Source: a virus (taxonomy: Duplodnaviria; Heunggongvirae; Uroviricota; Caudoviricetes). From it: a stretch of 31,520 bases of DNA. Below are positions 1-31,520 of this stretch, in pieces. The notes beneath the pieces were generated by a model, which worked only from the letters and a program-made list of their open reading frames with translations, made no database searches and was not told the origin of the DNA. The position numbers and the translations under genes are program-made. The stretch is taken from IMG/VR virus record IMGVR_UViG_2917870735_000002, one strand, 5' to 3'. The stretch's first letter is position 1; each line of letters begins with the position of its first letter.

Positions 1-129
1 CTATTTATCGGAAGGTTTATCTTGCTGCGGTTTGTTGTTGACCATATCGCACAACATCGAGAGCAGCATTAACCGTACTTTAAAGGGAGAGTGACTAAAC
101 ACGCGCATACACCTCTTGAACTCATTCAT
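1..129 (-). CDS. small hypothetical protein (42 aa)
   Basis: Not in ORF track (<60 aa). ATG at 129-127 on minus strand with AGGAGG about 5 nt upstream; stop TAG at 3-1. Translation MNEFKRCMRVFSHSPFKVRLMLLSMLCDMVNNKPQQDKPSDK. Function unknown. Confidence 0.35.
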   Translation of the reverse strand: MNEFKRCMRVFSHSPFKVRLMLLSMLCDMVNNKPQQDKPSDK

Positions 130-296
130 AAGACCTCCTGACTTGCTAATCCCGTCGATCCATGAGGGATGATTGCATTACATACAGATATAGCACAGGC
201 TATATTATAAAGCATCAACTATCTACGAAAAACAATAACTTACAGTGTTATCAATAAGTTGCGTTAGTTAATATCTGTGAGTATTCGGCAGTATTT

Positions 297-1337
297 CTAA
301 GCTGTCGCGACATTTTTGCGACATTTTAAGGGGTTAAGTCGCACGGCATCTTCAAGGTGGCTTGGGGCGAAATGGGCATAACGCATTGTCATAGTGATGT
401 CAGCGTGGCCGAGAATTTTTTGCAGAACCAGAATGTTTCCGCCGTTCATCATAAAGTGGCTGGCAAATGTATGGCGCAGTACATGGGTAAGCTGGCCGGA
501 GGGGAGTTCAATGCCTGCACGTTCCAGAGCAGAGCGGAAAGCGTTGTAGCAGGGCTTGGGGAACAGAGCGCCTTTTGTTTCAGGTAATTCGGACAGAAGT
601 TCATCATCAAGGGGAATTGTTCTGTTGCGCTTCCCTTTGGTTTTGACGAACGTGACTTTACCCCCGGCGATCTGGGAGCTTTTCAGCGTTGCCGCCTCAT
701 TCCACCTTGCGCCGGTAGCAAGGCAGATTTTGACAACTAATTCTAGGTACTTAACTTTACTTCGTTTGCATTCCAGTAAAAGCCGATCAATTTCTTCGGT
801 AGTGAGGAAAGCCATTTCGGTTTCATCAGTACGATACTGTCTGACGTTTTCTAGTGGGTTGGGTGCTGACCATTCACCAATCCGTTTCAGCTCGTTGAAC
901 ATAGCCAGGAAGTAAGCATGTTCAAGGTTCATAGTTTTCGGGGAAACCTTAGATACTCTGTTGGTACGGGCATAATGCCCATCCAGCCTTTTAGCGCGGT
1001 AGGCTGTGAACAACTGGGCATTAAATTCTGTGGCCAGCGGGAATCCCATGCATTCCGCCGCCCAGGTCATAGCATTTTTACGCTTTTCGCCATTGCTCAA
1101 AGCTACGCCGTGGCGTTCATACCACATGTTGATTAGGTCGCTTAGAGTACGGAGGTCTTTACCCTCGCCAAGCCAGGGGGAGTTCTCCACTTGCTGAAGC
1201 GTATAGTTCTCGTAGGCCAGGGCTTCGCCTTTTGTAGCGAATTTTTTACGAATACGCTTACCGGCTTTACCATTGCTTCGATCCACCGTGTAGAAATCGG
1301 CAATCCACTGGCCATTTGTTAATTTTCTTACAGACAT
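297..1337 (-). CDS. int: tyrosine integrase, P2 Int family
   Basis: 346 aa. N-terminal GKxGKRIRKKF arm-binding motif; catalytic region LATGARWNEA ... HVLRHTFASHF ... LGHADITMTMRYAHF (R, H-x-x-R, Y) as in P2 Int from memory. 3' end faces the left flank, as in P2 where int reads towards attP. Confidence 0.93.
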   Translation of the reverse strand: MSVRKLTNGQWIADFYTVDRSNGKAGKRIRKKFATKGEALAYENYTLQQVENSPWLGEGKDLRTLSDLINMWYERHGVALSNGEKRKNAMTWAAECMGFPLATEFNAQLFTAYRAKRLDGHYARTNRVSKVSPKTMNLEHAYFLAMFNELKRIGEWSAPNPLENVRQYRTDETEMAFLTTEEIDRLLLECKRSKVKYLELVVKICLATGARWNEAATLKSSQIAGGKVTFVKTKGKRNRTIPLDDELLSELPETKGALFPKPCYNAFRSALERAGIELPSGQLTHVLRHTFASHFMMNGGNILVLQKILGHADITMTMRYAHFAPSHLEDAVRLNPLKCRKNVATA

Positions 1338-3790: not shown

Positions 3791-4207
3791 ATGGCGATTA
3801 GTCAGGAACAGCAAAAGCGTGGACTTGAGCAATTAAAACAGATCCGCCGTAAATATTTCAGCGAAAGCAGTAAGGCCGCTGAATGGTGGGACGACTTAAC
3901 ACCAGAATGGCGCGGTGTGGTTCTTCATGCTGCTGCGATTACTTCAGGTTCCAGAGTATTTAAAGCTCATTTATGCAAATGCTGCTGGCGGGAGATTTAT
4001 GAACGCCTGGGCTATCGGTACATGATTCAACTGCGTCAGGGGATATCACGGGCGCGATTAACATTTGACGGTTTTGGCAGTTTACGTGACAGCGATTTTT
4101 CGAAACGTACCGCGAATCGGCCAATAAAAAAAGCACATCCAATTTGTAGTAATAGTGGGGTGCAGATGGTGATCGCGCCTCATATCGTCCATAAGTTCCA
4201 GCAATAG
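3791..4207 (+). CDS. hypothetical early protein (138 aa)
   Basis: ATG 3791 with GGGAAGAGGG upstream; rightward early operon between CII-like gene and A. Confidence 0.5.
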   Translation: MAISQEQQKRGLEQLKQIRRKYFSESSKAAEWWDDLTPEWRGVVLHAAAITSGSRVFKAHLCKCCWREIYERLGYRYMIQLRQGISRARLTFDGFGSLRDSDFSKRTANRPIKKAHPICSNSGVQMVIAPHIVHKFQQ

Positions 4208-4218
4208 AGGAATCACTA

Positions 4219-4620
4219 ATGACCATTATTTCCGTTGAGGGTAAATCGTTGCGGGAAGAACTCGCTGTATGGGGCGTCCCTCATATCTATGTTGTATCGT
4301 TTGCAGCGAAAAACACCAGTGAAAATGGTCGCATCGCTTTGCATCCTTTCTTTTTCAATGACGCCGAACACATGATGAATCTGCGCCACTGGTTAGCTAT
4401 TAATGCCGCTTTCTGGTGCTGCGTGTACCGCGAAGCACAGAGCAAAGATGCGCAGATCGAAGCGCTGGCAGGGATTCGCGCGATTTTCTATACAGCCGGG
4501 GCGCTGGGTGTTGGCGAGATAAAATCAATAATCCAGGAGTGGTGGCAGACAACCTATGAGCTGCATCTGATTCCGGCACCGAACTATTCAGCCGCCACAG
4601 TACTAACCCATTTTCACTAA
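4219..4620 (+). CDS. hypothetical early protein (133 aa)
   Basis: ATG 4219 with AGAGGA upstream; 11 bp after previous stop. Confidence 0.5.
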   Translation: MTIISVEGKSLREELAVWGVPHIYVVSFAAKNTSENGRIALHPFFFNDAEHMMNLRHWLAINAAFWCCVYREAQSKDAQIEALAGIRAIFYTAGALGVGEIKSIIQEWWQTTYELHLIPAPNYSAATVLTHFH

Positions 4621-4687
4621 TTAACTGTCTGAATTTTTGGTCACAGTTCAAGTGGCCGGGGATTCTTTTGCCTTAAGGGAACCCAAA

Positions 4688-4921
4688 ATGTATATGACAC
4701 ATCAGGATTTACCCGCAACAAAGCTTGGTACTGATCTACTGGACATGCTTGCTAAAGCCACGCAGGAAGGTAAAGCCGCAGTTGCTGACCTGTGTTCCAT
4801 CCGCCTGGATAAGCTGGCCACTCATGCAGCAAATGAAGGTTTAAGCGCAGCGGAAATCGTTGAGTTGATCCGAGAAGAGGCCGAGGCTATTTGCAGCAAA
4901 GGCGGTGCGGCATGGCAATAA
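4688..4921 (+). CDS. hypothetical early protein (77 aa)
   Basis: Track ORF 4637..4921 starts at TTG; ATG 4688 has AAGGGAA upstream. Acidic, helical-looking. Confidence 0.45.
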   Translation: MYMTHQDLPATKLGTDLLDMLAKATQEGKAAVADLCSIRLDKLATHAANEGLSAAEIVELIREEAEAICSKGGAAWQ

Positions 4922-4967
4922 AAACACCACTAAAATGTCTTTCGCCATCGCTTCTTGAGGCCAGCAT

Positions 4968-6989
4968 ATGATGTTGGCCATAAAGGAACACTTCTATGTT
5001 GTCGATACGTGGCGGCGTGAAACTTTCGCATCTTGCATACCGGCAGACGCGACAATCACAGAACGCCGTTTGTGGGCTGTAAATCCGCAGGATTATGAAT
5101 GGAGAGTCCGGTACCTGCATGAGATACCCGACTGGTTAGCCGGGTATTTTGGCCGTCGTTACGAAAAGCTGTTTGCTGGTCGTGACGGGCGTTGTCGTGC
5201 CAATACATTCCTGCGCCAGACTATCGGCGGGAGTGTATTGCCACGTCTGCGCAAAGTGGCTGCGCGTTACTCGCTGGCCGCTGACGCTGCCGATCTTCCT
5301 TTTGGTAAGTCGCTGGCGCGCTTGCCGTCACTAGACCGTCCTGATCTTAAAAAACTGGCTGGCCAGGTATCTGGCTGGATTTCCCAGTCACTTTATGACT
5401 TCACCGAACAGTTTGACTCCAGCACTGACGACGCCAGAGAGCTGCATCGCCGCACCTTGGAATCATACCGCCATCTTTGCGCGGGTTGCCTGATGCTGAA
5501 TAACCAGCCGCCGTACTGGGCTGAACATGAGGCCAATGAAGGTCAACTGGAAATGCGTAAGGCGGAATCCGGGATACTGCGCATGATGGCGCCGGAATGG
5601 TGGTACCTACGTCTTAAACGTGCGCGTGATATGCAGCGCGAACATATGGCCATCGCGGTGGGACAGGTACAAAAAGCGGCCAGCGCTTATGTATCCCGCA
5701 AAACACTGGACGAATGGATAGACCAGAAAAAGCGGAATCTGGAGTTCTTTAAAAAGTTTGATCTGCTGAATGATGAGGGGCTGCGCATTGCACTGGACAG
5801 CATGGTGCACCGCAGCGTTGCAAATCCGGCGATCCGTCGATGTGAACTAATGGTAAGAATGCGAGGGTTTGAAGATATGGCCAATGAAGAAGGGCTGGCC
5901 GGTGAGTTTTACACCATCACCGCGCCATCACGTTTCCACGCAGTGCACAGCAAAGGTGGCTTTGTATCGCAATGGGATGGATGTACACCGCAGGATACCC
6001 AGCGCTATTTATGCGGCGTATGGGCAAAAGCACGCGCAGCGATCTCGCGTGCGGGTATTCATGTATTTGGGTTTCGGGTTGTTGAGCCACACCATGACGG
6101 GACACCGCACTGGCATATGTTGCTTTTTATGCGTCTGCAGGACGTGGACACGGTACGCGATATTCTTTGCTATCACGCCAGAATTACCGATTCTGAGGAA
6201 CTGCAATCTGAAAAGGCGCTTAAGGCACGTTTTCACGTTGAAGCTATCGATCCCGACAAAGGTTCAGCCACGGGCTACATCGCGAAATACATTTCAAAAA
6301 ATATTGATGGTTTTGCGTTGGATGGTGAGCAGGACGAAGAAACCGGCGAAAACCTGCGTGATATGGCTAAGTCCGTTTCTGCATGGGCTTCACGCTGGCG
6401 CATTCGTCAGTTTCAGCAGATTGGTGGTGCGCCGGTAACCGTCTGGCGTGAGCTGCGTCGGTTGCGGGATCTGGTGCTGACAGATCGCAGAATGGATGCG
6501 GTTCTGGCCGCTGCTGATGTTGGCGATTGGGCTGCATACACCCAAGCACAGGGTGGCGCACTGATTGCCCGCCGTGATCTGGTTGTTCGTCTGGCCTATG
6601 AAATTACGGAACAGGGCAACGAGTACGCAGAGGACGTGCAGCGCGTACAGGGGGTTTATTCTCCTTTGGTTCCTGATTCGGAAGTTTGCACCCGTCTGGT
6701 TAAGTGGCAAAAGGTTGCGAAGTTGGCCGAAGCGCCAGCGGAGGCGGGGTTTTCTGGCGGCAACGCCGCCCCTTGGAGTTCTGTCAATAACTGTACGGAG
6801 GGGGGAATCCTCAGACGGTTAAAACTGGAATTATGCAGTCGGGGTTTTAACGGTTCTAATGAAGAAATAGCCATTCTCCTACGGGGTAGTGGTTTGATGT
6901 TTGGCCAAGGGGGACTGGTTTACCGTAATGGGTGGCTTAAAGAGATTCAAAACGAGCCATTAAACGAGTTATGGCCGGGGTGGGTCTAG
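4968..6989 (+). CDS. A: replication initiation protein A (rolling-circle nicking endonuclease, P2 gpA family)
   Basis: 673 aa; ATG 4968 with GAGG upstream. His-hydrophobic-His motif (HHDGTPHWHMLLF) and tyrosine/lysine motif (TGYIAKYISKN) typical of rolling-circle initiators. Size comparable to 186 A and P2 A from memory. Confidence 0.85.
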   Translation: MMLAIKEHFYVVDTWRRETFASCIPADATITERRLWAVNPQDYEWRVRYLHEIPDWLAGYFGRRYEKLFAGRDGRCRANTFLRQTIGGSVLPRLRKVAARYSLAADAADLPFGKSLARLPSLDRPDLKKLAGQVSGWISQSLYDFTEQFDSSTDDARELHRRTLESYRHLCAGCLMLNNQPPYWAEHEANEGQLEMRKAESGILRMMAPEWWYLRLKRARDMQREHMAIAVGQVQKAASAYVSRKTLDEWIDQKKRNLEFFKKFDLLNDEGLRIALDSMVHRSVANPAIRRCELMVRMRGFEDMANEEGLAGEFYTITAPSRFHAVHSKGGFVSQWDGCTPQDTQRYLCGVWAKARAAISRAGIHVFGFRVVEPHHDGTPHWHMLLFMRLQDVDTVRDILCYHARITDSEELQSEKALKARFHVEAIDPDKGSATGYIAKYISKNIDGFALDGEQDEETGENLRDMAKSVSAWASRWRIRQFQQIGGAPVTVWRELRRLRDLVLTDRRMDAVLAAADVGDWAAYTQAQGGALIARRDLVVRLAYEITEQGNEYAEDVQRVQGVYSPLVPDSEVCTRLVKWQKVAKLAEAPAEAGFSGGNAAPWSSVNNCTEGGILRRLKLELCSRGFNGSNEEIAILLRGSGLMFGQGGLVYRNGWLKEIQNEPLNELWPGWV

Positions 6990-7003
6990 CAGGGTAAATA
7001 TGT

Positions 7004-7019
7004 GAAATGCATGCATTTC
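7004..7019. repeat. 16-bp perfect palindrome GAAATGCATGCATTTC just downstream of A
   Basis: Verified base by base; 15-30 bp after the A stop codon. Confidence 0.6.
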
Positions 7020-7074
7020 TCAGTAGATGGAAGGAAATTAAATTTCACTATTCGTGCTTTACGGTGTACGGTAT

Positions 7075-7092
7075 ACTGGATACTTATCCAGT
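7075..7092. repeat. 18-bp dyad ACTGGATA-ct-TATCCAGT
   Basis: 8-bp perfect inverted arms, 2-bp centre; preceded by TACGGT-g-TACGGT direct repeat. Confidence 0.6.
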
Positions 7093-7114
7093 CACTATTG
7101 CTTGTGGGGGCTAA

Positions 7115-7321
7115 ATGGATCTTTTGGAGGCGTCGGCACAGCTGGAACGCATTGAGTTATTAGCTAAAATTGCCCATGATTACGAAAGTAACCAGAGAGA
7201 AAAAACAATCGCTTTGGCCTGGATTGGAGAACTTGCGGAAGAGGTTCACAAAATGGTTAGAAAGGAAGGGAAAAGCCCTCATTCTGGGGGCTTTTTAGGC
7301 AGCGGGAGTCACTTTCAGTAA
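7115..7321 (+). CDS. hypothetical ORF (68 aa), doubtful
   Basis: ATG 7115 with weak GTGGGGG upstream; 3' end overlaps the convergent ogr-like gene by 27 nt. May be non-coding. Confidence 0.25.
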   Translation: MDLLEASAQLERIELLAKIAHDYESNQREKTIALAWIGELAEEVHKMVRKEGKSPHSGGFLGSGSHFQ

Positions 7322-7564
7322 ATCTAATGCTACCTGGCGCTGAGCGGGAGAAAGTGCACTCAGTATTTTTTGCACCACCGCATCACCCGTTTTAGCGCTG
7401 GGGCTGAGAGTGTGGGAAAATGTCAGATTCATAACAAATGTGTGGCCACATTCAACATCTGAACAGGCGCAGTAAATATCTGCAATTTGCCGATGCTTCC
7501 TGTTCGTTTTACGAATAACAGCCTTTGAGCCGCATTCCGGGCATTCGATTTTCAGAACTCGCAT
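7295..7564 (-). CDS. ogr: late gene transcriptional activator, Ogr/Delta zinc-finger family (89 aa)
   Basis: In-frame ATG at 7564 (MRVLKIECPECG...), GGAG about 11 nt upstream. Cys pattern CPEC ... CACSDVEC matches the C4 arrangement of P2 Ogr/186 B as I recall. About 17 aa longer at the C-terminus than the 72-aa P2/186 proteins. Confidence 0.8.
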   Translation of the reverse strand: MRVLKIECPECGSKAVIRKTNRKHRQIADIYCACSDVECGHTFVMNLTFSHTLSPSAKTGDAVVQKILSALSPAQRQVALDLLKVTPAA

Positions 7565-7614
7565 ATTCCATGCTCCAGCTGTTAAATGAAGCATGGATTT
7601 TAGCCAGTTTCGCA

Positions 7615-8676
7615 TCATGCCGCACCTTTATCTATTGATTCTATGTAACTTAAATCAAAGTTTAGGTGCAACCTTTCCGGTATTTCGGGATCGTTGTTTA
7701 CGGCCAGCATGAAACGGCGCTGGATGGGGGCAATTTCGCTTTTCTTATAAATGCGTTCAGCCTTTTCAACATCCCCCAGTCCGGCAGTGTTCTGCGGGAC
7801 AATACCGGCGAGGCCGGCAGGGAAACGGTGCGCGTTCAGAATATCCTGGGCGCTGATGTTCTTGATGTTGGCAAATTCATCCTTAGCAGAAATATCACCC
7901 ATTTCAATGAATTTGATGGCGTCGCCGTCTCCACCGGGAATGTTTACAAGGATGGTGGAGAAGTTCCCGATCCCTTTGCTGTCACGCAGCTGCTGTTCAA
8001 TTTCTTCCTCCATTTCGTCCGTCATGCTGGGATCGCGGGTATAAAGAATTCCGCCTGTGTGTGCACCGTTGTGGTAGTAGCGGCGTCGGAAAATGACCGC
8101 TTCACTGTTAAGTAACGCGGAATGCACACCGCCGATGTAGTCCGGCAGTCCGTAGATATGCTGTTGAGGGTCATACATTTTGATAAAGATAATATCTTCT
8201 TCTGGCCATATCTGCGGTTCCCCTTCCTGTAACACTACGTAGTCACCGGGCTTATCCAGGGCGTTATCTCTGACTTTGCGGCGGCGTATATACAGACCGG
8301 GTAAGGGTTCAAGTGCGATCACGTCTCCCCAGCCGTTACGAATTTTGGCAATCGCAATATCCCCAAAGGTTATATAGTCATACGCTGCCGCTTCCAGCTG
8401 GTCGTGAATAAGTCCGCCACCCAAGTAATCTGAAACAATCATGTTTTTGCGGGCGTGAATGATGCCGCCGTGCTGACCGTTAAGATTAATCAGCTGTGCG
8501 AGTGCCAGCCGGTCAATCGGCTGGGTGAAGTGATCGGCGGCATTGTCGTACCAGATATCACGGTAATCTGTGCCGGTAGTCAGAACCGGTTCAGGTTTGC
8601 CGAATGTGATAATGCTCATCTTTTTTGATTTGTCGCCGCGCTGGTCGCGCTTAACAAAGCGTTTCTTTTTACTCAT
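7615..8676 (-). CDS. Q: portal protein (P2 gpQ family)
   Basis: 353 aa; conserved blocks (GLPDYIG...LNSEAVIFRRRYYHNGAHTGGILY; DILNAHRFPAGLAG...GDVEKAE) match P2 Q from memory. Start ATG overlaps terminase stop (ATGA). Confidence 0.92.
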   Translation of the reverse strand: MSKKKRFVKRDQRGDKSKKMSIITFGKPEPVLTTGTDYRDIWYDNAADHFTQPIDRLALAQLINLNGQHGGIIHARKNMIVSDYLGGGLIHDQLEAAAYDYITFGDIAIAKIRNGWGDVIALEPLPGLYIRRRKVRDNALDKPGDYVVLQEGEPQIWPEEDIIFIKMYDPQQHIYGLPDYIGGVHSALLNSEAVIFRRRYYHNGAHTGGILYTRDPSMTDEMEEEIEQQLRDSKGIGNFSTILVNIPGGDGDAIKFIEMGDISAKDEFANIKNISAQDILNAHRFPAGLAGIVPQNTAGLGDVEKAERIYKKSEIAPIQRRFMLAVNNDPEIPERLHLNFDLSYIESIDKGAA

Positions 8677-10448
8677 GCAGCCTCTTTCCTTACACCCCAG
8701 CGGGATTTAGGTTTGTTTTCATAGTTAAGGGGTTCGTTATGCAGACCGTGGGTAATCGCCCAGAACGCCTCCGCGTGGCCAGTATCCTGGCTGCGGTCAG
8801 CGACAAACGTCATGGCGTTGCCGCTTTGTGTGGTGGTTCGGCGCACAGACATAAAGCTGGCAGCGATCTCTTTCAGGTTTTTATCCCACTCAATACGTTG
8901 GCTTTCCACCACGTCCACCGCTTTCAGCACCAGTTGATTTTTGGTGTTCAGGTCGTAACGAATAGGGACGGCCACGCGCATGGCAAAATGCTGAATGTTG
9001 TCAAAAACACCTTGGCCAATGCCGGTAACGTCCACACCCAGATAAGTGAAGTTGTATTTTTTAACCAATTGCTCGATCTGTTTTGCCTGGTACCGGAAGT
9101 TCATGCCTTTCCAGTAAATCACCTTCAGAACGCGGAATTTCTCCACGGCGAGTATCGGCGGTGCGATGATGACAAAACAGGACAAATCACCGCTGCGAGC
9201 CGGGTCAAAGCCACCCCATACCGGCCTGTCACCAAATGGCCGCGCTGCATCAGGGTTGTGATCCTGCCAGGTGTCGATTTCAACACCGCAGGCTTCCAGA
9301 TCGGAAAAGCTGAAAACGGAATCTTTGCTGTCAACGAACACGCACATATAGAGCATGTTAAAAGTGGCGTCGTTGTAGCGGTTGCGAAGTTTCTCGATGT
9401 TCGCCAGGTTGAAACCGCCCGCAATGGCATCTCCCATCGTAATGACGTAGCGCCATTGCCCATCCGGGCAGAGTCGCCCGCCGTCACGCATTTCGTTAAA
9501 GGACGGAAACTTAATGGCCGCACGTTTTTTACTGCCTTGTTTCCACTCATCGCCCGTCCAGAACGGGTAAGCCTGGTGCGTTTTTGCCGATGGCGTTGAA
9601 AAATAGGTGATGCGCCACTTGTCATGTGTGGCCATTGCGCTGGCCACTTCGTTAAGTTTTGCAAAGTTTGGCACCCAGAAATATTCGTCACAGTACAGGT
9701 GGCCACTGTAGGACTGGGCGGTGTTTTTGTTGGTGGAGAGAAAACGCAGTTCTGCGCCGTTGCTTAAGCGGATCGGGTTGCCGGTTAGCGTAATACCGAA
9801 ATACTGCTCTGCAATATTCACGATGTAAGACCGGAACACTTCAGCCTGTGCTTTTGACGCTGACAGAAAGATTTGCGGATCGCCGGTCATCACCGCATTT
9901 TCAAACGCTTCAAACGCAAAATACCAGGTCGCACCGATCTGGCGGCTTTTCAGGATGTTCCTGACAAGCTGGCCAATGTTATTGCGCAGGTGTTTCTGAT
10001 ATTCAAAAAGATGTTCCTCAGCCCATGCGTCAAAGTCCTCCTGCGTCAGCGACGTAATATCGTTTTTCTTGTATTTCCGTTTGCTGCGTGGTTCGTCGTC
10101 ATTGTTGCCCCGCGCAGCTGCTTGCCCGGAACTCTGACCGCTGGCCATTTTCTCTTTGTGTTTATTACTCTGCGCACGCAGTTTCGTGGCATGAGCAATG
10201 AGCATGTCCATTTCTTTCAGGTCGAGATCGGTTTTGTTATCGCGGCTGGCCAGCAGCTGGTAACGGCGTTCAATTGCTTCCTCTGTGCTTTCAAAACTGA
10301 GCAAATCCGCCCAGCTGTATTTCTCCGCCCAGTAGTAAATGATCCGCGCATTCGGCAGATTTAATTCAGATGCGATTTCCTTTGGCGTATAGCGGCGCAG
10401 ATAAAGTGCGCGAACAACGCCTTTTAATTCTTCAGAGTATTTAGCCAT
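8673..10448 (-). CDS. P: terminase large (ATPase) subunit, P2 gpP family
   Basis: 591 aa, same length class as P2 gpP; divergent from O/N/M/L exactly as in P2; coupled to Q. Confidence 0.88.
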   Translation of the reverse strand: MAKYSEELKGVVRALYLRRYTPKEIASELNLPNARIIYYWAEKYSWADLLSFESTEEAIERRYQLLASRDNKTDLDLKEMDMLIAHATKLRAQSNKHKEKMASGQSSGQAAARGNNDDEPRSKRKYKKNDITSLTQEDFDAWAEEHLFEYQKHLRNNIGQLVRNILKSRQIGATWYFAFEAFENAVMTGDPQIFLSASKAQAEVFRSYIVNIAEQYFGITLTGNPIRLSNGAELRFLSTNKNTAQSYSGHLYCDEYFWVPNFAKLNEVASAMATHDKWRITYFSTPSAKTHQAYPFWTGDEWKQGSKKRAAIKFPSFNEMRDGGRLCPDGQWRYVITMGDAIAGGFNLANIEKLRNRYNDATFNMLYMCVFVDSKDSVFSFSDLEACGVEIDTWQDHNPDAARPFGDRPVWGGFDPARSGDLSCFVIIAPPILAVEKFRVLKVIYWKGMNFRYQAKQIEQLVKKYNFTYLGVDVTGIGQGVFDNIQHFAMRVAVPIRYDLNTKNQLVLKAVDVVESQRIEWDKNLKEIAASFMSVRRTTTQSGNAMTFVADRSQDTGHAEAFWAITHGLHNEPLNYENKPKSRWGVRKEAA

Positions 10449-25042: not shown

Positions 25043-25559
25043 TGGCGAGGCCATCCAGCTGAAAAACATGCGGGTGACTGTTTCACAGCAATTTCAGGAT
25101 AAAGATCAGTCCGGCCAGACCAGTGCCACAACAAAATCAGAGCAGGGAGCAAAGGGAAAGGAACTGCGGATCAGCGGTGAAATACCTTTTAAACAGCCTG
25201 AAGTACTAAAGCGTATTTTTGAGCTGGCCAGTACTACCGATGCCAGTGGTAATCGTCAGAAATATCGCGTGGTGCATGAAGTTGCCCGTGCTGTTAACTT
25301 TCGTGAAGCAACGTTCAGCGGAACGGTGGATGCACCCCAGCAGGACGGGAAGATGTCCTGGTTGGTGACATTCACACTGGCGGAACATATCAGCGTGCAG
25401 GAAAAGCAAGAGGCCAGGGCAACAGGTAAGACGACCGCAAAAAAACAGACTGCCGGTAGTGCGGGACAGTCCGGTGGCCAGTCTGCCGGAGAAGATGAAG
25501 AAAAACTGACGTGGTTTGAACGCAAGGTACTGAAGCCCGTCAATGATGCTTTGGGTTAA
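25014..25559 (+). CDS. putative tail protein (gpU position, 181 aa)
   Basis: ATG 25014 with AAGGGA upstream; precedes large distal tail gene; positional assignment only. Confidence 0.4.
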   Translation: MTSIPTLALNGEAIQLKNMRVTVSQQFQDKDQSGQTSATTKSEQGAKGKELRISGEIPFKQPEVLKRIFELASTTDASGNRQKYRVVHEVARAVNFREATFSGTVDAPQQDGKMSWLVTFTLAEHISVQEKQEARATGKTTAKKQTAGSAGQSGGQSAGEDEEKLTWFERKVLKPVNDALG

Positions 25560-27262
25560 TGATGAAACCAGTAAAACGCCTATACCTTTCAACGGATGAA
25601 GTTCACCTGGTGGATGCCAGCCTGGTACTGGAGCTGAACAGCTGCGGCCGGGGCTTCATCACCGCAGAGACAACAACCGATTACACCGGAAAACTGGTGA
25701 GGCTGGATGTGGGGTATACCGAACTGCTTTTGCGCTGGTTTACGGGGTATGTGGAGCGATCGCAGCCCGCTGAAAACGGTTTTCAGCGTCTGTTCATTCG
25801 TGAGTTGGCAGGTGTGTTTGAAAGGATGTGGCCATGTTCGTTTCAACACCCGACTTTGCGTGAAATTGCGGTCTGGTTGGAAGAAAATAGCGGGATCACG
25901 GTCAGTGTGCCTGACGCACAGTACAGCGATACCCCTATCCCACATTTTACCCATAACGGTACTGGTTATCAGTTGCTGAACAATCTGGGAAGGGCGTTCA
26001 GTATCCAGGATTACATCTGGTACCAGTTTCCTGATGGTTCGCTTTACGTCGGTGGCGCAGAAAAGTCATTGTTTGCCGGTCGTCCCGTAGAAATCCCATC
26101 AGAATTCAGCCAGGGGGCTGCTGGCGGTAACTCTGTGACATTACCAGTGATCCAGACTATGCGGCCAGGGGTGGAGATGAACGGTGAACGCGTGACTAAG
26201 GTTCATCTGACGAATGACACGATGGCGATCACATGGATGCCGAGAAACCGCGTAACGGGTAAACCTTTGCAGAAAACACCGGCACAAAGGCAGATTGAAA
26301 GCCATTACCCTGAACTGGCATCTGGGCTTCATTTGCCAAAGATGGCCAGAGTCGTGGCGTATTCAGAGCCGGTAAAAAGCGGTAACTTTGCCGATCCCTT
26401 CCGACCACGTTACGCCGTGGACGTGCAGCTTCTTGACGCAGACGGAAACCCGGACAATCAGACACCTGTTTATTCAGCGGTGCCGTTGCCAGTACCGATG
26501 GCTGGGAATGATTCAGGTATGTTTCAGTTTCCGCCAGAAGGGACGCTGGTTGAGGTTGCATTCACGGGAGGCAGACCTGATAAACCCTTTATCAGGCAGA
26601 CGCTGCCGGATGGTACCAGCCTGCCGGACGTTAAACCCGGTGAGCAATTGCAGCAGCAGCGGGAAGAAGTATCCCAGAGGGTGACTCAGGCTGGAGACTG
26701 GGTAAGGCAGACCGATCAGACCATCAGTGAAACATCGATGGTGCGAACGGTAAAAGCCGATACGGAACAGCGCGAACTGGTCAGCCGTGAAACCGCGGTG
26801 AAAGCTACGGATAAAACTACGGTACTGGGAACCGCCATATTGCTGGCTGGAGCCATCCAGCAGGTCAGCGCCGGTGATTATAGCCAGGCGGTGAAAGGTA
26901 ACAGGCTGTCCAGTATTGAAGGAAACGAAGAAACGGACATAACAGGACTGCAGTCCACTAAAGTGGGGGGGGCTGTAGTCGTGGAGGTTGGCGAAAGCCT
27001 GACAGAGAAGATTGCAGCACTGCGTAAATCAGTAGCCACTGGAGGTCAGCAGGTCATGGGGGCAACTGTCCATATTGGCAGTGAGAGTATCAACGCCCTG
27101 ACCATGATGCTGGACACCATTGATTTACTGGAAGAGCTGGCGCAGCTATGTGCGAGCCATTCTCATCCCTCCGTTGGGATGCCAACCAATGCCGCCGCGT
27201 TCACCCAGACAGGGACGAAAGCCGGGCAGACCCGGGAAAAATACCAGGGGATTATTGCCTAA
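25559..27262 (+). CDS. putative baseplate hub / late control D-like tail protein (567 aa)
   Basis: TAATG-coupled to upstream gene; last gene of late operon as gpD is in P2; no firm motif recognised. Confidence 0.4.
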   Translation: MMKPVKRLYLSTDEVHLVDASLVLELNSCGRGFITAETTTDYTGKLVRLDVGYTELLLRWFTGYVERSQPAENGFQRLFIRELAGVFERMWPCSFQHPTLREIAVWLEENSGITVSVPDAQYSDTPIPHFTHNGTGYQLLNNLGRAFSIQDYIWYQFPDGSLYVGGAEKSLFAGRPVEIPSEFSQGAAGGNSVTLPVIQTMRPGVEMNGERVTKVHLTNDTMAITWMPRNRVTGKPLQKTPAQRQIESHYPELASGLHLPKMARVVAYSEPVKSGNFADPFRPRYAVDVQLLDADGNPDNQTPVYSAVPLPVPMAGNDSGMFQFPPEGTLVEVAFTGGRPDKPFIRQTLPDGTSLPDVKPGEQLQQQREEVSQRVTQAGDWVRQTDQTISETSMVRTVKADTEQRELVSRETAVKATDKTTVLGTAILLAGAIQQVSAGDYSQAVKGNRLSSIEGNEETDITGLQSTKVGGAVVVEVGESLTEKIAALRKSVATGGQQVMGATVHIGSESINALTMMLDTIDLLEELAQLCASHSHPSVGMPTNAAAFTQTGTKAGQTREKYQGIIA

Positions 27263-27316: not shown

Positions 27317-27913
27317 TCAGTTGTTGTGTAGTTCAAGATAGTTAGAGGTGGAGTGCGTATCAAGCGGTAGTAGTTGTGCGGCTCTGCGGGTTATAAAGAC
27401 ACTATTGGCAGGAATGTTTCGGTTAACGAATGACATAGCACCAATTGTCACATTATCACCAATGGTCAGATCATCACCGATGATGCATGAATTTGCGCCA
27501 ATCTCGACATTGTCTCCGATCCTGATGGCTTTGATTCCTTCAACTGTTTTTAATCCAATCGTTGTGTTTTGTCGGATACGAACATTTTTTCCAATCACAG
27601 CCTGGGGACAAATGACTATTCCAACGAAGTGATAAATTTTGAATTTTTCCCCGATCTGTGCCCCCAATCCAATATCAGTATTGTATTTTGAAACAAGTCT
27701 CCGGTGGATTCTTCGTGCCCACTTAATACTTGATTTCCCTCCCTGACAGTAAAGGCAATTCGCTATCCTCCACCAACACATGAATCTGTGTCCGGGTTGT
27801 CTCCAGCAACGTAGTATGATTCTCCTCCAGGAGAAATTTTTACTGCTGTGCAGTATGTCCGCGCACAACAACTTCTTCATATCCTCATAATGCGACTTTT
27901 TGTTGTTGCTCAT
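27317..27913 (-). CDS. hexapeptide-repeat acetyltransferase, serine acetyltransferase (CysE)/WcaB-like
   Basis: 198 aa; ATG 27913 with AGGGAGA upstream. Helical N-terminus (HRFMCWWRIANCLY) then left-handed beta-helix repeats (DIGLGAQIGEKFKIYHFVGIVICPQAVIGKNVRIRQNTTIG ... IGDNVEIGANSCIIGDDLTIGDNVTIGAMSFV) paralleling the CysE core pattern. AT-rich; convergent with the last tail gene. Confidence 0.75.
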   Translation of the reverse strand: MSNNKKSHYEDMKKLLCADILHSSKNFSWRRIILRCWRQPGHRFMCWWRIANCLYCQGGKSSIKWARRIHRRLVSKYNTDIGLGAQIGEKFKIYHFVGIVICPQAVIGKNVRIRQNTTIGLKTVEGIKAIRIGDNVEIGANSCIIGDDLTIGDNVTIGAMSFVNRNIPANSVFITRRAAQLLPLDTHSTSNYLELHNN

Positions 27914-28566: not shown

Positions 28567-28935
28567 TCAATTTTCATCAATATGACTTTCGTTTTCATCT
28601 TTGTACCATGTGGGCAAATTATCTGTAATTTGTTCATTAATTACATTTTGAGTGTCAGCAGGTAGCAGTTTAAAAATCTCAAAAATAAAGTTTGATATTT
28701 CAACTTTTACATCAGCAGTAGGGCCATAAAAATCATCTTTAACATAATCCCATTTATGCTTTATTAAAGTTGATTCTGGATATTGTATTTTGACTAAGCC
28801 AATTTGTTTGTAAATCCAATTTATGGCGCTATCTGCTCCAGAGAAGGCCTCATTACCGCTATTAATAAATGGCCCAACATCATAGACACGTTTAGTGTTA
28901 TTATCTAAAACTCTTACATAACAATTGGTTGCCAT
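28567..28935 (-). CDS. hypothetical small acidic protein (122 aa)
   Basis: ATG 28935 with AAGGTGG upstream; 15 bp after the 104-aa gene on the same strand; AT-rich; acidic C-terminus. Confidence 0.6.
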   Translation of the reverse strand: MATNCYVRVLDNNTKRVYDVGPFINSGNEAFSGADSAINWIYKQIGLVKIQYPESTLIKHKWDYVKDDFYGPTADVKVEISNFIFEIFKLLPADTQNVINEQITDNLPTWYKDENESHIDEN

Positions 28936-28950
28936 ACCCCACCTTTTTTA

Positions 28951-29265
28951 TTAGCCAATGTACCGTACACGATTGCCGTTATATAATGGCCATTCGTTTA
29001 GCAAATCTCTAAGTAGTCTTTCCATGTGAGTTGCATCTTCTGCTGCATTTTTTCCAACATAGTCATTTCCACGTTGGAAAGTTTCATAACGCATTGCCAT
29101 TGATGGGGTGTTTTCTTCAAAGCCAATTGGAGACAAATCATTTATTTGTGTAACTGCTACATCGCCAGATTTAGATACCCAGAGAATATGATGACCTGCG
29201 TTATCGTCGCAAGCAGAGATTAGTTGTGAGAGTTGGCTTACTGTAGGGTTATTGTTTAAGTTCAT
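28951..29265 (-). CDS. hypothetical small protein (104 aa)
   Basis: ATG 29265 with AAGAGG 8 nt upstream; first gene of a two-gene cassette. Confidence 0.6.
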   Translation of the reverse strand: MNLNNNPTVSQLSQLISACDDNAGHHILWVSKSGDVAVTQINDLSPIGFEENTPSMAMRYETFQRGNDYVGKNAAEDATHMERLLRDLLNEWPLYNGNRVRYIG

Positions 29266-29474: not shown

Positions 29475-30101
29475 TTACAGCACTGTTTCTGCGGAACGGG
29501 ACGCTTCTTTTGTCGCATTGCCAGTGATAAAAGGCTGCTTTTCCTGATATTCCGACTGCGGTAGTTTGGATGTATACACTGGCGTGATCTTGTTTTTATA
29601 AACGGTGTCACTGGGGATGTTCTGAAGCACCAGTGAATGCGCACCAATGGTGACATTGTTTCCGATTGTAATCTTGCCGCCCAGAATGGACGAGTTACAG
29701 CCAATATCAACATGATCACCAATGATTATCATTGCGTCGACACTGTCGGTGCGTAACCCTATGGTGATGCCTTGCTTCAGGTCGGCGAAATCACCAATCA
29801 CGCAATTGTCAGTAATGACAATACCGTTCAAATGAGCAATGTTTAACCCCTTGCCGATTTTGCACGACAGAGAAATATCAACGCTGTGCCGGTACTTGAG
29901 GCGGTTTTCAATTCTGCGGGCAATGCGCTTTTTGAACTTACTATTCTGGCCATAGAGCCATGAAGCAATACGCCACCAGAACAGGAAGTGCTTCTTCTGG
30001 TTGCGTCGGGTACGAAGTAACGCTTTACGCCATGAAAAGGCTTTGTCATGGCCAATGACTTCAAGGCGGATACATTCTTTACGATGGTCGTAGGAAGTCA
30101 T
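29475..30101 (-). CDS. hexapeptide-repeat acetyltransferase, CysE/WcaB-like (divergent paralog of 27317..27913)
   Basis: 208 aa; shares N-terminal motif (FSWR..., WWRIASWLY) and beta-helix repeats (IGDFADLKQGITIGL ... IGDHVDIGCNSSILGGKITIGNNVTIGAHSLV) with the other acetyltransferase. Confidence 0.75.
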   Translation of the reverse strand: MTSYDHRKECIRLEVIGHDKAFSWRKALLRTRRNQKKHFLFWWRIASWLYGQNSKFKKRIARRIENRLKYRHSVDISLSCKIGKGLNIAHLNGIVITDNCVIGDFADLKQGITIGLRTDSVDAMIIIGDHVDIGCNSSILGGKITIGNNVTIGAHSLVLQNIPSDTVYKNKITPVYTSKLPQSEYQEKQPFITGNATKEASRSAETVL

Positions 30102-30210: not shown

Positions 30211-30245
30211 ATCACCCTTACCACTCATGGAGTGGTAAGGGTGAT
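30211..30245. repeat. 35-bp inverted repeat ATCACCCTTACCACTC-atg-GAGTGGTAAGGGTGAT (16-bp perfect arms)
   Basis: All 16 pairs verified; between the 411-aa gene stop (30285) and acetyltransferase 2 start (30101). On the minus strand a T6 run lies about 10 nt after the stem. Confidence 0.8.
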
Positions 30246-30284: not shown

Positions 30285-31520
30285 TTAGAGGTGAAACCAA
30301 GAATAAGTAGCTTCATCTTTTTCAAAAATATACTGTATATGTAATTCAACTAACCAGAGACTAACTATTTTAAGCGTAAGTTTATTACATAAATGAATAT
30401 ACCTTGTATAACTTATTTCTCTTTCAGCTCCTGTACCCCCACTTTTGTATCGAACAGATTCTCCATCATGCCATATTGATGCGTGATGCGAGCCATTCCT
30501 AATTGTAGATTCTAAATCATCTTCACAAAAGGCGGTAAATAATTCATTGTCTTTAAATGGATTTATCTTTCCTTCTTTATTAACATCTTTTATATATTTG
30601 TTTAGTGTCATTGTTTTGAATTGATCAAAACTCCTTCCATTAATAATGTTATTAATGCAGGCTAATATTGTCATGTTAGATGTTAAAGTTTCATAAGCAT
30701 CACCATAGTAATTACGGATTTTATCAAAGTTTTTTGAACTGATGATTTTGGTGTCAATTTCATCGTTGTTTATTCTTGCGTAATATATTAGTTGGCCAAA
30801 ATGATCTCGACGAGACATGAAGTCTGATATGATGTTTATATATCTTTGTTGATTTTCAACCTGTAGGTTTTGTTTATAAAATTTATAGAAATCGTCCAGT
30901 AATCCATTTTTTTTAAGCTCGTCAATTTCTAGCTTTATAGGTTCGGCAATGTCATGAACACGAGGGTAGAAAAGCCAATCTAAAAACTCATAACTAATTG
31001 AAGTGAAAGAGTACATTGAATCCTTTTTGTAAAGAGGTAATTCTTCATTTCGTGACTGCATGTATAATTTTGCTGTACGCTGTGCTTTTTCTATTTCCCC
31101 ATTGTTAATAAGTTTTGCAATGGATTTTAAATAAGCCCATTTTGACGGAGCGTTAGGAATATCAAATTGGTGTGAAATGCTGATAATTCTTTGTCCAGGT
31201 GGCATCCTCATATGCTTATGGAGCATGCTCGTTAACTCAAGGGATGGGAAAGTTGTTGGTGAATGAATTTCATCTTTGTCGAAAGCACAAGCTGGGTGAA
31301 AATTAACTACTTTATGTTCTAAGCTATATTCAACAATAATACAATTTTCTTCAACTTGAATGTAAGCGCTGGGGGGAATAGCTTTTACAGCAAAAACAAT
31401 TGGCATATTACATTCAAAACAATCCATGAAATGCTTTTGATATTTATCAATTCCGACCCCAACCCTTACACGATAAATAGCGTTACATGACTGACATTGG
31501 ATGCTATTACCGATTACCAT
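30285..31520 (-). CDS. hypothetical Cys-rich protein (at least 411 aa); zinc-ribbon-like N-terminus; 5' end at window edge
   Basis: ORF runs to the last base; first ATG is at 31520-31518 so the true start may lie outside. N-terminus has CQSC-x22-CFEC spacing; very AT-rich; no recognisable catalytic motif. Confidence 0.6.
   Translation of the reverse strand: MVIGNSIQCQSCNAIYRVRVGVGIDKYQKHFMDCFECNMPIVFAVKAIPPSAYIQVEENCIIVEYSLEHKVVNFHPACAFDKDEIHSPTTFPSLELTSMLHKHMRMPPGQRIISISHQFDIPNAPSKWAYLKSIAKLINNGEIEKAQRTAKLYMQSRNEELPLYKKDSMYSFTSISYEFLDWLFYPRVHDIAEPIKLEIDELKKNGLLDDFYKFYKQNLQVENQQRYINIISDFMSRRDHFGQLIYYARINNDEIDTKIISSKNFDKIRNYYGDAYETLTSNMTILACINNIINGRSFDQFKTMTLNKYIKDVNKEGKINPFKDNELFTAFCEDDLESTIRNGSHHASIWHDGESVRYKSGGTGAEREISYTRYIHLCNKLTLKIVSLWLVELHIQYIFEKDEATYSWFHL

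Follow-up and report, generated by a model that had tools for sequence, protein, structure and literature searches.

The gene at the extreme right of IMG/VR record IMGVR_UViG_2917870735_000002 (Caudoviricetes; 31,520 nucleotides, the whole of which is called the window below) encodes a complete 411-amino-acid (aa) protein whose putative role is most likely that of a single-gene anti-phage effector. It occupies positions 30285-31520 on the minus strand, is the last gene of a prophage and belongs to a wide protein family whose members are found on mobile elements and beside defence systems. This company, together with the stand-alone nature of the gene, makes an anti-phage effector its most likely role. 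Tentatively, at slightly less than even confidence, we infer that the protein is a stand-alone, prophage-borne abortive-infection RNase which combines a zinc ribbon with a HEPN domain and lies outside the RAZR family.

A complete cargo gene beside attR

The open reading frame (ORF) list and the translation place the stop codon at 30285-30287 and an ATG at 31518-31520, the final three bases of the window, on the minus strand; the translation (411 codons plus stop) begins MVIGNSIQCQSCNAIY... An earlier note on this DNA, made from the window alone, had correctly drawn the 411-aa ORF but considered it truncated, at least 411 aa long and with an unseen 5' end. In the source contig (GCA_004745215.1, PDHW01000016.1; locus L001), an in-frame TAA lies five codons upstream of the ATG and an AAGGA Shine-Dalgarno sequence about 7 nt ahead of it. 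The nearest homologues are also 411 aa long with 100% query coverage, within a wider family of 395-420 aa. The upstream in-frame stop, the ribosome-binding site and the homologues of the same length show that the protein is complete at exactly 411 aa, and the claim of truncation can be discarded. A larger or host gene severed at the window edge, with this ORF as its 3' part, or a pseudogene in decay had a single point in its favour, the contact of the ORF with the last base of the window. Both ideas are refuted by the same three observations with the ATG at the window end, by the lack of the whole element at this site in E. coli K-12 and by strong purifying selection (see below). Upstream extension of the contig revealed no host gene of which the ORF would be the 3' part.

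The window is essentially one prophage of about 31.6 kb that has integrated into the intergenic region of mntS and mntR. The empty site is represented by E. coli K-12 (locus L003), which lacks the whole element and aligns as two blocks, window positions 1-213 and extended coordinate 31799 onward. These blocks overlap by 15 bp (GCTATATTATATAGC), which constitutes the attachment (att) core. The attL core (GCTATATTATAaAGC, no strand assigned) thus lies at 199-213 and the matching attR core at extended coordinates 31799-31813 (L001), about 280 bp past the window end, which makes the 411-aa gene the last gene inside the element; the integrase gene (297-1337) is located at the opposite end. The upstream partners which the earlier note had left out of sight do not exist, since what lies upstream is just 280 bp of phage DNA, followed by attR and the host gene mntR.

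The phage is a P2-like, ESSI2-like member of the Peduoviridae (Quadragintavirus). Its relative ESSI2_ev015 has the gene order integrase, about 340 bp with attP, acetyltransferase, without the 411-aa gene, and its homology to the window ends just upstream of the acetyltransferase. The 411-aa gene is therefore extra cargo inserted beside attP. GC content drops from about 50% to 33-45% across the last 4 kb of the window, a region that also carries two hexapeptide acetyltransferase genes and two orphan ORFs. The 411-aa gene itself has a GC content of 32.6%, and 26% at third codon positions, versus 50% in the prophage backbone (first 27 kb of the window). Both the AT-richness and the location at the edge of a cargo island, as described earlier, hold: the gene is foreign, AT-rich cargo at the extreme edge of the prophage.

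A hairpin with a perfect 16-bp stem (30211-30245, minus strand) starts about 40 nt past the stop codon and is followed 10 nt downstream by a U-run. Its RNA fold has a predicted energy of -28.1 kcal/mol (z = -6.2), which none of 200 shuffled sequences equalled, and it was not called by a simple terminator scan. Such a strong hairpin past the stop codon suggests a monocistronic unit, and the hairpin is probably the terminator that makes the 411-aa gene monocistronic.

Zinc ribbon, helical region and conserved core

Conservation was assessed via a wide alignment (A2) of 105 sequences with 20-50% identity to the query and a mean column identity of 26%. AlphaFold2, run with the family alignment, gave a confident model (predicted local distance difference test [pLDDT] 89.2, predicted template modelling score [pTM] 0.90) with a beta-rich zinc-ribbon domain at residues 1-74, a helical region at 93-332 and a C-terminus composed of a beta-hairpin (345-359), a third strand (366-369) and a long terminal helix (371-400). 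Invariance across the 105 sequences is confined to ten columns, namely C9, C12, C34, C37, E277, N291, R341, N342, H346 and Y374, which include the four zinc ligands as well as R341, N342 and H346. R19, G23, N59, F265, Y272, R296, Y309, K315 and Y371 are near-invariant.

The N-terminal zinc-ribbon domain (residues 1-80; 31281-31520, minus strand) contains the two CxxC pairs reported in the earlier note, C9-x2-C12 and C34-x2-C37, with 22 positions from C12 to C34, encoded at 31410-31496. Seven beta-strands over residues 2-74 were predicted with a pLDDT of about 90, and sub-threshold zinc-ribbon matches in Pfam were obtained with Cys_rich_CPXG (39 of the 105 members), Zn_ribbon_Elf1 (27 of the 105) and further families. 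The invariance of the Cys4 ligands in all 105 homologues agrees with the zinc-ribbon-like character proposed earlier. Conservation of the ribbon amounts to 1.84 bits per column. The helical middle region (residues 81-255; 30756-31280, minus strand; helices at 93-249 in the model) is the least conserved part, at 1.0-1.2 bits per column versus about 2.1 in the C-terminal core, and may determine specificity or act as a sensor. A diversifying sensor surface, if one exists, more probably lies in this middle helical domain than in the ribbon, which may instead serve RNA binding or oligomerisation.

The conserved C-terminal core (residues 256-400; 30321-30755, minus strand), a putative HEPN-like catalytic domain, counts E277, N291 and Y374 among its invariant residues and Y272, R296, Y309, K315 and Y371 among its near-invariant ones. 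It also contains the motif R341-N342-G-S-H-H346, an R-N-x3-H (Rx4H) motif at 30483-30500 (minus strand; codons AGG AAT GGC TCG CAT CAC), in which R341, N342 and H346 are invariant down to 20% identity. A recognisable enzymatic motif, which the earlier note had failed to see, is therefore present as the invariant R-N-x-x-x-H of residues 341-346. H30, D33, N73, H75 and H345, which do not vary in the close set A1, were considered as a second metal centre; the idea was dropped, as these residues are not invariant in the wider family.

In the HEPN RNase signature, Rx4-6H, the R is directly followed by a polar residue, mostly N, D or H, and a conserved acidic residue stands upstream; in Csx1 a beta-hairpin directly follows the motif (PMC3710099). 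Residues 341-346 agree with the motif rule, including the polar residue after the R, and the beta-hairpin at 345-359 of the AlphaFold2 model, directly after the motif, matches the Csx1 feature (PMC3710099). The invariant E277 may correspond to the upstream acidic residue of the HEPN pattern, but no K or R is conserved at +4. Among the top 60 structure matches, 17 belong to the HEPN superfamily, and generic helical bundles score equally. These 17 comprise Csm6 (6tug at rank 1, 5yjc and 8jbc), Csx1-Crn2, Las1 and LAS1L, the HEPN toxins 8xdj, 7ae2 and 5yep, the sacsin HEPN domain, HI0074, AF0298, YutE, TTHA0636, 4nqf and the NT-associated 2pbe and 3l0i. Small HEPN domains align nearly end to end with the model, for example over 118 of 130 residues. 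On the strength of motif and model, the C-terminal part is somewhat more probably a divergent HEPN-like domain than not one. The absence of the RAZR structures (9Y9C, 9Y6U) from the lists of PDB matches is uninformative, and no match came from searching PDB sequences with the profile or with either the N-domain or the C-domain by itself.

The 411-aa protein has no significant match in Pfam, NCBIfam or PADLOC. When 42 and 105 members were scanned singly against Pfam (for the 105, the best 25 of 109 matched families are listed), the remaining ~330 residues beyond the sub-threshold zinc ribbons stayed unmatched. PADLOC-DB v2.0.0 gave 0 matches for the 411-aa protein and only chance-level matches for the 105 members (best E 0.002, 1-3 members each). 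No confident homology to a characterised non-defence protein emerged from the library and structure searches. In PHROGs, a sub-threshold match (E 1.8e-4) to phrog_13366 aligns residues 246-347 with profile positions 244-347 of 413. This is the sole library family with a collinear sub-threshold match, though it carries no annotation and aligns weakly and over part of the protein; phrog_13366 is probably a distant phage-borne branch of the 411-aa family.

Relatives and genomic surroundings

A word-indexed search found 195 relatives, and an exhaustive profile search of 1.84 billion representatives gave 536 clusters (50% identity) at E <= 1e-3, of which 312 were at E <= 1e-10. Far from being an orphan, as had been supposed in the earlier note, the protein thus belongs to a wide family, in which nearly all clusters are about 400 aa long with the same end-to-end architecture. 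The spread is patchy across Proteobacteria, Cyanobacteria and Bacteroidota: members occur in Enterobacteriaceae, Vibrio, Shewanella, Aeromonas, Pasteurellaceae, Acinetobacter and Betaproteobacteria, on rhizobial and sphingomonad plasmids, in many Cyanobacteria and in Bacteroidota. All are annotated as "hypothetical protein" in every source. Only two of 5426 complete E. coli genomes hold a copy (74.6% nucleotide identity), and four PLSDB plasmids carry a family member. A literature search found the family accession numbers nowhere mentioned, with incomplete coverage that leaves validation under another name possible, and neither the motif nor the accessions were found in the DefensePredictor supplements.

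In comparison with the 79%-identical E. coli allele, non-synonymous divergence (pN) is 0.13 and synonymous divergence (pS) 0.80, with synonymous sites saturated. The gene is 74.6% identical in nucleotides to the E. coli allele, versus 90% for the flanking phage backbone. Low pN with saturated synonymous sites indicates purifying selection, and the gene is more diverged than its vehicle.

The relatives are found in the neighbourhood of mobile elements and defence systems. In E. coli, ESSI2-like prophages at mntR carry the 79% allele (P0002) in exactly this att-proximal slot, next to other cargo. A 63% allele (L049) is found in the corresponding slot of a related phage that has integrated elsewhere in its host, beside an Asp-Al_Ex permease gene. 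In E. coli GCA_017730315.1 (L007, 7723-11209), a prophage remnant from which about 26 kb has been deleted retains the 411-aa gene intact. This deletion begins inside the 567-aa tail gene, stops no more than about 370 bp short of the attL end and leaves about 3.3 kb between mntR and mntS, including the intact gene and an 84-aa ORF. Homologues carried as cargo of integrative and conjugative elements (ICEs) adjoin RelA_SpoT, ArdC and anti-restriction genes; in the Citrobacter and E. coli ICE loci L010-L013 (6575-8001), about 1.4 kb without a called gene lies ahead of a 419-aa gene, and a 341-aa RelA_SpoT-domain protein is encoded convergently downstream of it. One member resides in a small CI-repressor/integrase element by mug, another beside tra genes, and an Oscillatoria member adjoins an integrase. 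A Shewanella member with 47% identity (L021 contig, 4074-9188) lies 69 bp downstream of a Gabija pair in the same orientation. This pair consists of a GajA-like AAA_15/OLD-TOPRIM protein (698 aa) and a GajB-like UvrD helicase (586 aa); an integrase follows directly, and the element has a P2 gpA-type replication gene. One further member shares an integrase island with DUF6119, SMEK_N and Abi_alpha.

A neighbour scan covered 149 ORFs within 5 kb at 19 further genome loci. PADLOC identified type II restriction-modification (RM), Lamassu LmuA/LmuB, PD-T4-6, PtuB and several PDC candidates among these ORFs, and Pfam identified toxin-antitoxin (TA) toxins (ParE, PIN), transposases, XisH/XisI and TraI. 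A recurrent partner was sought among the 19 loci: no family occurs in more than three of them, and the neighbours differ at every locus. A conserved partner gene was found at none of the examined loci, in keeping with the stand-alone gene proposed in the earlier note. The varied neighbours, in the company of mobile elements and defence genes, indicate that the protein works alone and travels on mobile elements.

The remaining observations concern the attachment site and the neighbouring genes of the prophage in the window. The att core GCTATATTATATAGC is palindromic, 15 bp long and located about 70-85 bp upstream of the mntS start codon, and the insertion may separate mntS from part of the MntR-controlled regulatory region. 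Related prophages with the 79% allele use the same mntS-mntR site in E. coli. A 17-bp exact direct repeat, CGCGACATTTTTGCGAC, at window positions 306-322 and extended coordinates 31720-31736 (L001 9785-9801; 200-216 bp past the window end), was initially taken as the att core and rejected, since the K-12 alignment puts the core at 199-213 and 31799-31813. One copy is about 100 bp inward of attL and the other about 65-80 bp inward of attR; the left copy overlaps the final integrase codons and the right copy was flagged as a weak hairpin by the terminator scan. These repeats are candidates for integrase arm-type or accessory-factor binding sites.

Within the low-GC cargo region, the two hexapeptide-repeat (LbH) acetyltransferase genes are located at 27317-27913 and 29475-30101, both on the minus strand. 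Their best NCBIfam similarities, below the cut-offs, are to EpsC, CysE and WcaB-type O-acetyltransferases, and they may act in acetylation of surface polysaccharide (O-antigen or capsule), that is, as seroconversion genes. Other acetyltransferase versions are carried by related ESSI2 phages. The adjacent orphan ORFs, 28567-28935 (minus strand, 122 aa) and 28951-29265 (minus strand, 104 aa), gave no match in Pfam, NCBIfam, PADLOC or PHROGs and are conserved at 97.6% nucleotide identity in ESSI2_ev015 (gp42 and gp41). The last tail gene (25559-27262, plus strand, 567 aa) has only sub-threshold matches to a gp5/VgrG-type OB domain and Gp5_C repeats, and its product looks like a central spike or baseplate hub. 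At this gene the conserved backbone, in which relatives are about 90% identical, gives way to the variable cargo. An Rfam search of the whole window found nothing.

Possible action, alternatives and meaning

The closest characterised analogue is RAZR (PD-T7-4; E. coli UMB1727, RRL46918.1), a 219-aa protein with a Cys4 zinc finger and a DUF4145 HEPN domain (PMC13017515, PMC9519451), labelled "Zn finger-HEPN" in the original screen. RAZR is non-toxic alone, assembles around the portal or Erf-like (Gp77) rings of infecting phages and, once assembled, cuts single-stranded RNA non-specifically, which results in abortive infection and requires the catalytic Arg and His. Its zinc finger is its most variable, specificity-setting region. 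Like RAZR, the window protein is a single protein with an N-terminal Cys4 ribbon, invariant in its family, followed by a putative HEPN-type domain; the analogy is architectural, and probably also mechanistic. However, RAZR has 219 aa and the window protein 411 aa, with a helical insert of about 170 residues between ribbon and core; RAZR uses R146 and H154 in DUF4145, whereas the window protein has a canonical Rx4H at 341-346; and no family member matches PADLOC PD-T7-4 or PF13643 (DUF4145) among the matches listed. The variability is also reversed, as the finger is the most variable part of RAZR, while the window family has 1.84 bits per column in the ribbon and 1.0-1.2 in residues 81-255. Membership of the RAZR family was rejected on account of the missing PD-T7-4/DUF4145 match, twice the length and the opposite conservation pattern.

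Csm6 and Csx1 share the putative layout of sensor domain, helical domain and HEPN, but the window protein has no CARF or Cas match and no sequence similarity to them, and no cas genes occur in the Pfam-annotated neighbourhoods of the examined loci. HepS (Gifsy-1) and Tha (S. aureus prophages) are stand-alone prophage HEPN nucleases, triggered by phage structural proteins, that cut tRNA or RNA. With RAZR, they are established precedents for single-protein HEPN abortive-infection systems on prophages or similar elements that respond to phage structural proteins. By description they resemble the 411-aa gene, a putative single-gene HEPN nuclease carried as prophage cargo; they differ in having no zinc ribbon, and no sequence relationship was detected via PADLOC or Pfam. 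The cyanobacterial protein Npun_R5629 is listed, from computational analysis, as a Swt1-like HEPN domain fused to a zinc ribbon (PMC3710099). By description this is the type of fusion proposed for the window protein, and the 411-aa family is rich in cyanobacterial members, but Pfam HEPN_Swt1 is unmatched among the matches listed for the family. HEPN-MNT and other type II TA systems differ in that the 411-aa gene has no conserved adjacent antitoxin or MNT partner at the examined loci.

The RNase reading draws on the invariant motif, the structure model, the genomic context, these precedents and the rare, patchy distribution. In this reading, the protein would consist of an N-terminal Cys4 zinc-ribbon beta-domain, a variable helical domain and a C-terminal HEPN-like domain in which R341-N342-x3-H346, aided by E277, N291 and Y374, would form a metal-independent RNase site. 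In the lysogen, it would be expressed from its own promoter as a monocistronic unit beside attR and remain inactive. Upon infection by a second phage, the variable helical region, the zinc ribbon or both would recognise a phage-made trigger, and this recognition would bring HEPN domains together as an active composite site. This site would then cut RNA of the cell and the phage (tRNA, mRNA or rRNA), so that translation halts and the infection aborts. It is conceivable, if rather doubtful, that the protein represents a structurally distinct new HEPN-like branch acting as a new single-gene anti-phage system with a fast-evolving helical sensor of about 170 residues. With the same reserve, a conserved ribbon and a post-motif beta-hairpin would there have been added onto the catalytic bundle, and the placement of the sensor would be the reverse of that in RAZR.

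Several observations weigh against a HEPN RNase acting in defence. The family alignment lacks an upstream acidic motif of the form Ex3[KR], and the Rx4H motif lies in a loop and strand of the AlphaFold2 model, not at a helix N-terminus. Foldseek searches with this model against PDB and BFVD found nothing, and a profile link to HEPN (Pfam HEPN, DUF4145, NCBIfam and PADLOC; 42 and 105 members, E up to 1-5) was not among the matches listed. The family is nearly absent from phage databases, with 4 of 2.9 million IMG/VR contigs carrying a member and 0 records in a tblastn search of INPHARED phages. At the Aeromonas locus L025, a mobile or defence context is not evident, and the association of the family with defence genes is qualitative and anecdotal.

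Some of these points favour a mobile-element conflict or defence protein with non-HEPN chemistry, in which the helical-bundle likeness would be fortuitous. The R, N, H, E, Y and K residues and a Gly-rich SGGxG loop would then form another site, for instance that of an enzyme which targets DNA or nucleotides, or of a nucleotide sensor. Such a protein, and such a site within it, is unlikely, although clearly to be reckoned with: it draws on the same context evidence as the RNase reading, and it accounts for the missing HEPN profile match, for a motif away from a helix start and for the extra conserved Y272, R296, Y309, K315, Y371, Y374 and G361-G364, which HEPN would not need. Against it are the exact R-N-x3-H spacing with an invariant N after the R, and the Csx1 precedent of a post-motif hairpin, which fits the model.

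The mobile contexts of the gene could also reflect an RNase or toxin serving the element itself, either as an addiction or stabilisation toxin, as an anti-plasmid or anti-satellite weapon or as a regulator of host or phage RNA in lysogeny or induction. The terminal position in prophages, ICEs and integrative islands, the retention in the decayed prophage remnant L007 and the TA genes (ParE, PIN) in some neighbourhoods speak for this, but an adjacent antitoxin-like gene is not conserved where neighbours differ at every examined locus, an MNT partner is absent and the gene is probably monocistronic with its own hairpin terminator, which leaves it quite improbable. Still less probable, to the point of being a minor concern, is a non-conflict accessory protein that hitch-hikes on mobile elements, such as a zinc-ribbon nucleic-acid-binding regulator or an RNA-processing factor. 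At least one chromosomal locus lacks an obvious mobile or defence context, the zinc ribbon is better conserved than a diversifying sensor would be, and the size and breadth of the family are compatible with a housekeeping-like accessory role. Its extremely patchy distribution (2 of 5426 E. coli genomes), a GC content 17 points under the backbone, the repeated use of att-proximal cargo slots and positions beside Gabija, RM and Lamassu, and the failure to find a conserved operon at any examined locus all argue against such a role.

The 411-aa gene is no surprise, but it makes a solid defence candidate that can be tested cheaply. Its practical value is modest but real: it is one well-defined gene, with a predicted promoter and terminator of its own, for experimental validation and for entry into defence-finder databases. 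If the abortive-infection RNase reading is true, a defence family spanning several bacterial phyla (about 540 clusters at 50% identity) on prophages, ICEs and plasmids has been missed by Pfam, NCBIfam and PADLOC v2, with only a weak unnamed match in PHROGs. It would represent a second, independently built zinc-ribbon/HEPN architecture beside RAZR, and comparison of the two could show how stand-alone HEPN RNases are silenced and switched on. In the more doubtful case of a structurally distinct HEPN-like branch, the family would also provide a novel mode of sensor-effector coupling and possibly a new class of phage trigger, and the att-proximal slot of ESSI2-like Peduoviridae prophages would be a defence hotspot. 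The region from the last tail gene to attP in ESSI2-like P2-family phages looks like a swap-prone cargo slot, in which three alleles of the 411-aa gene, acetyltransferases and small orphan ORFs are all found.

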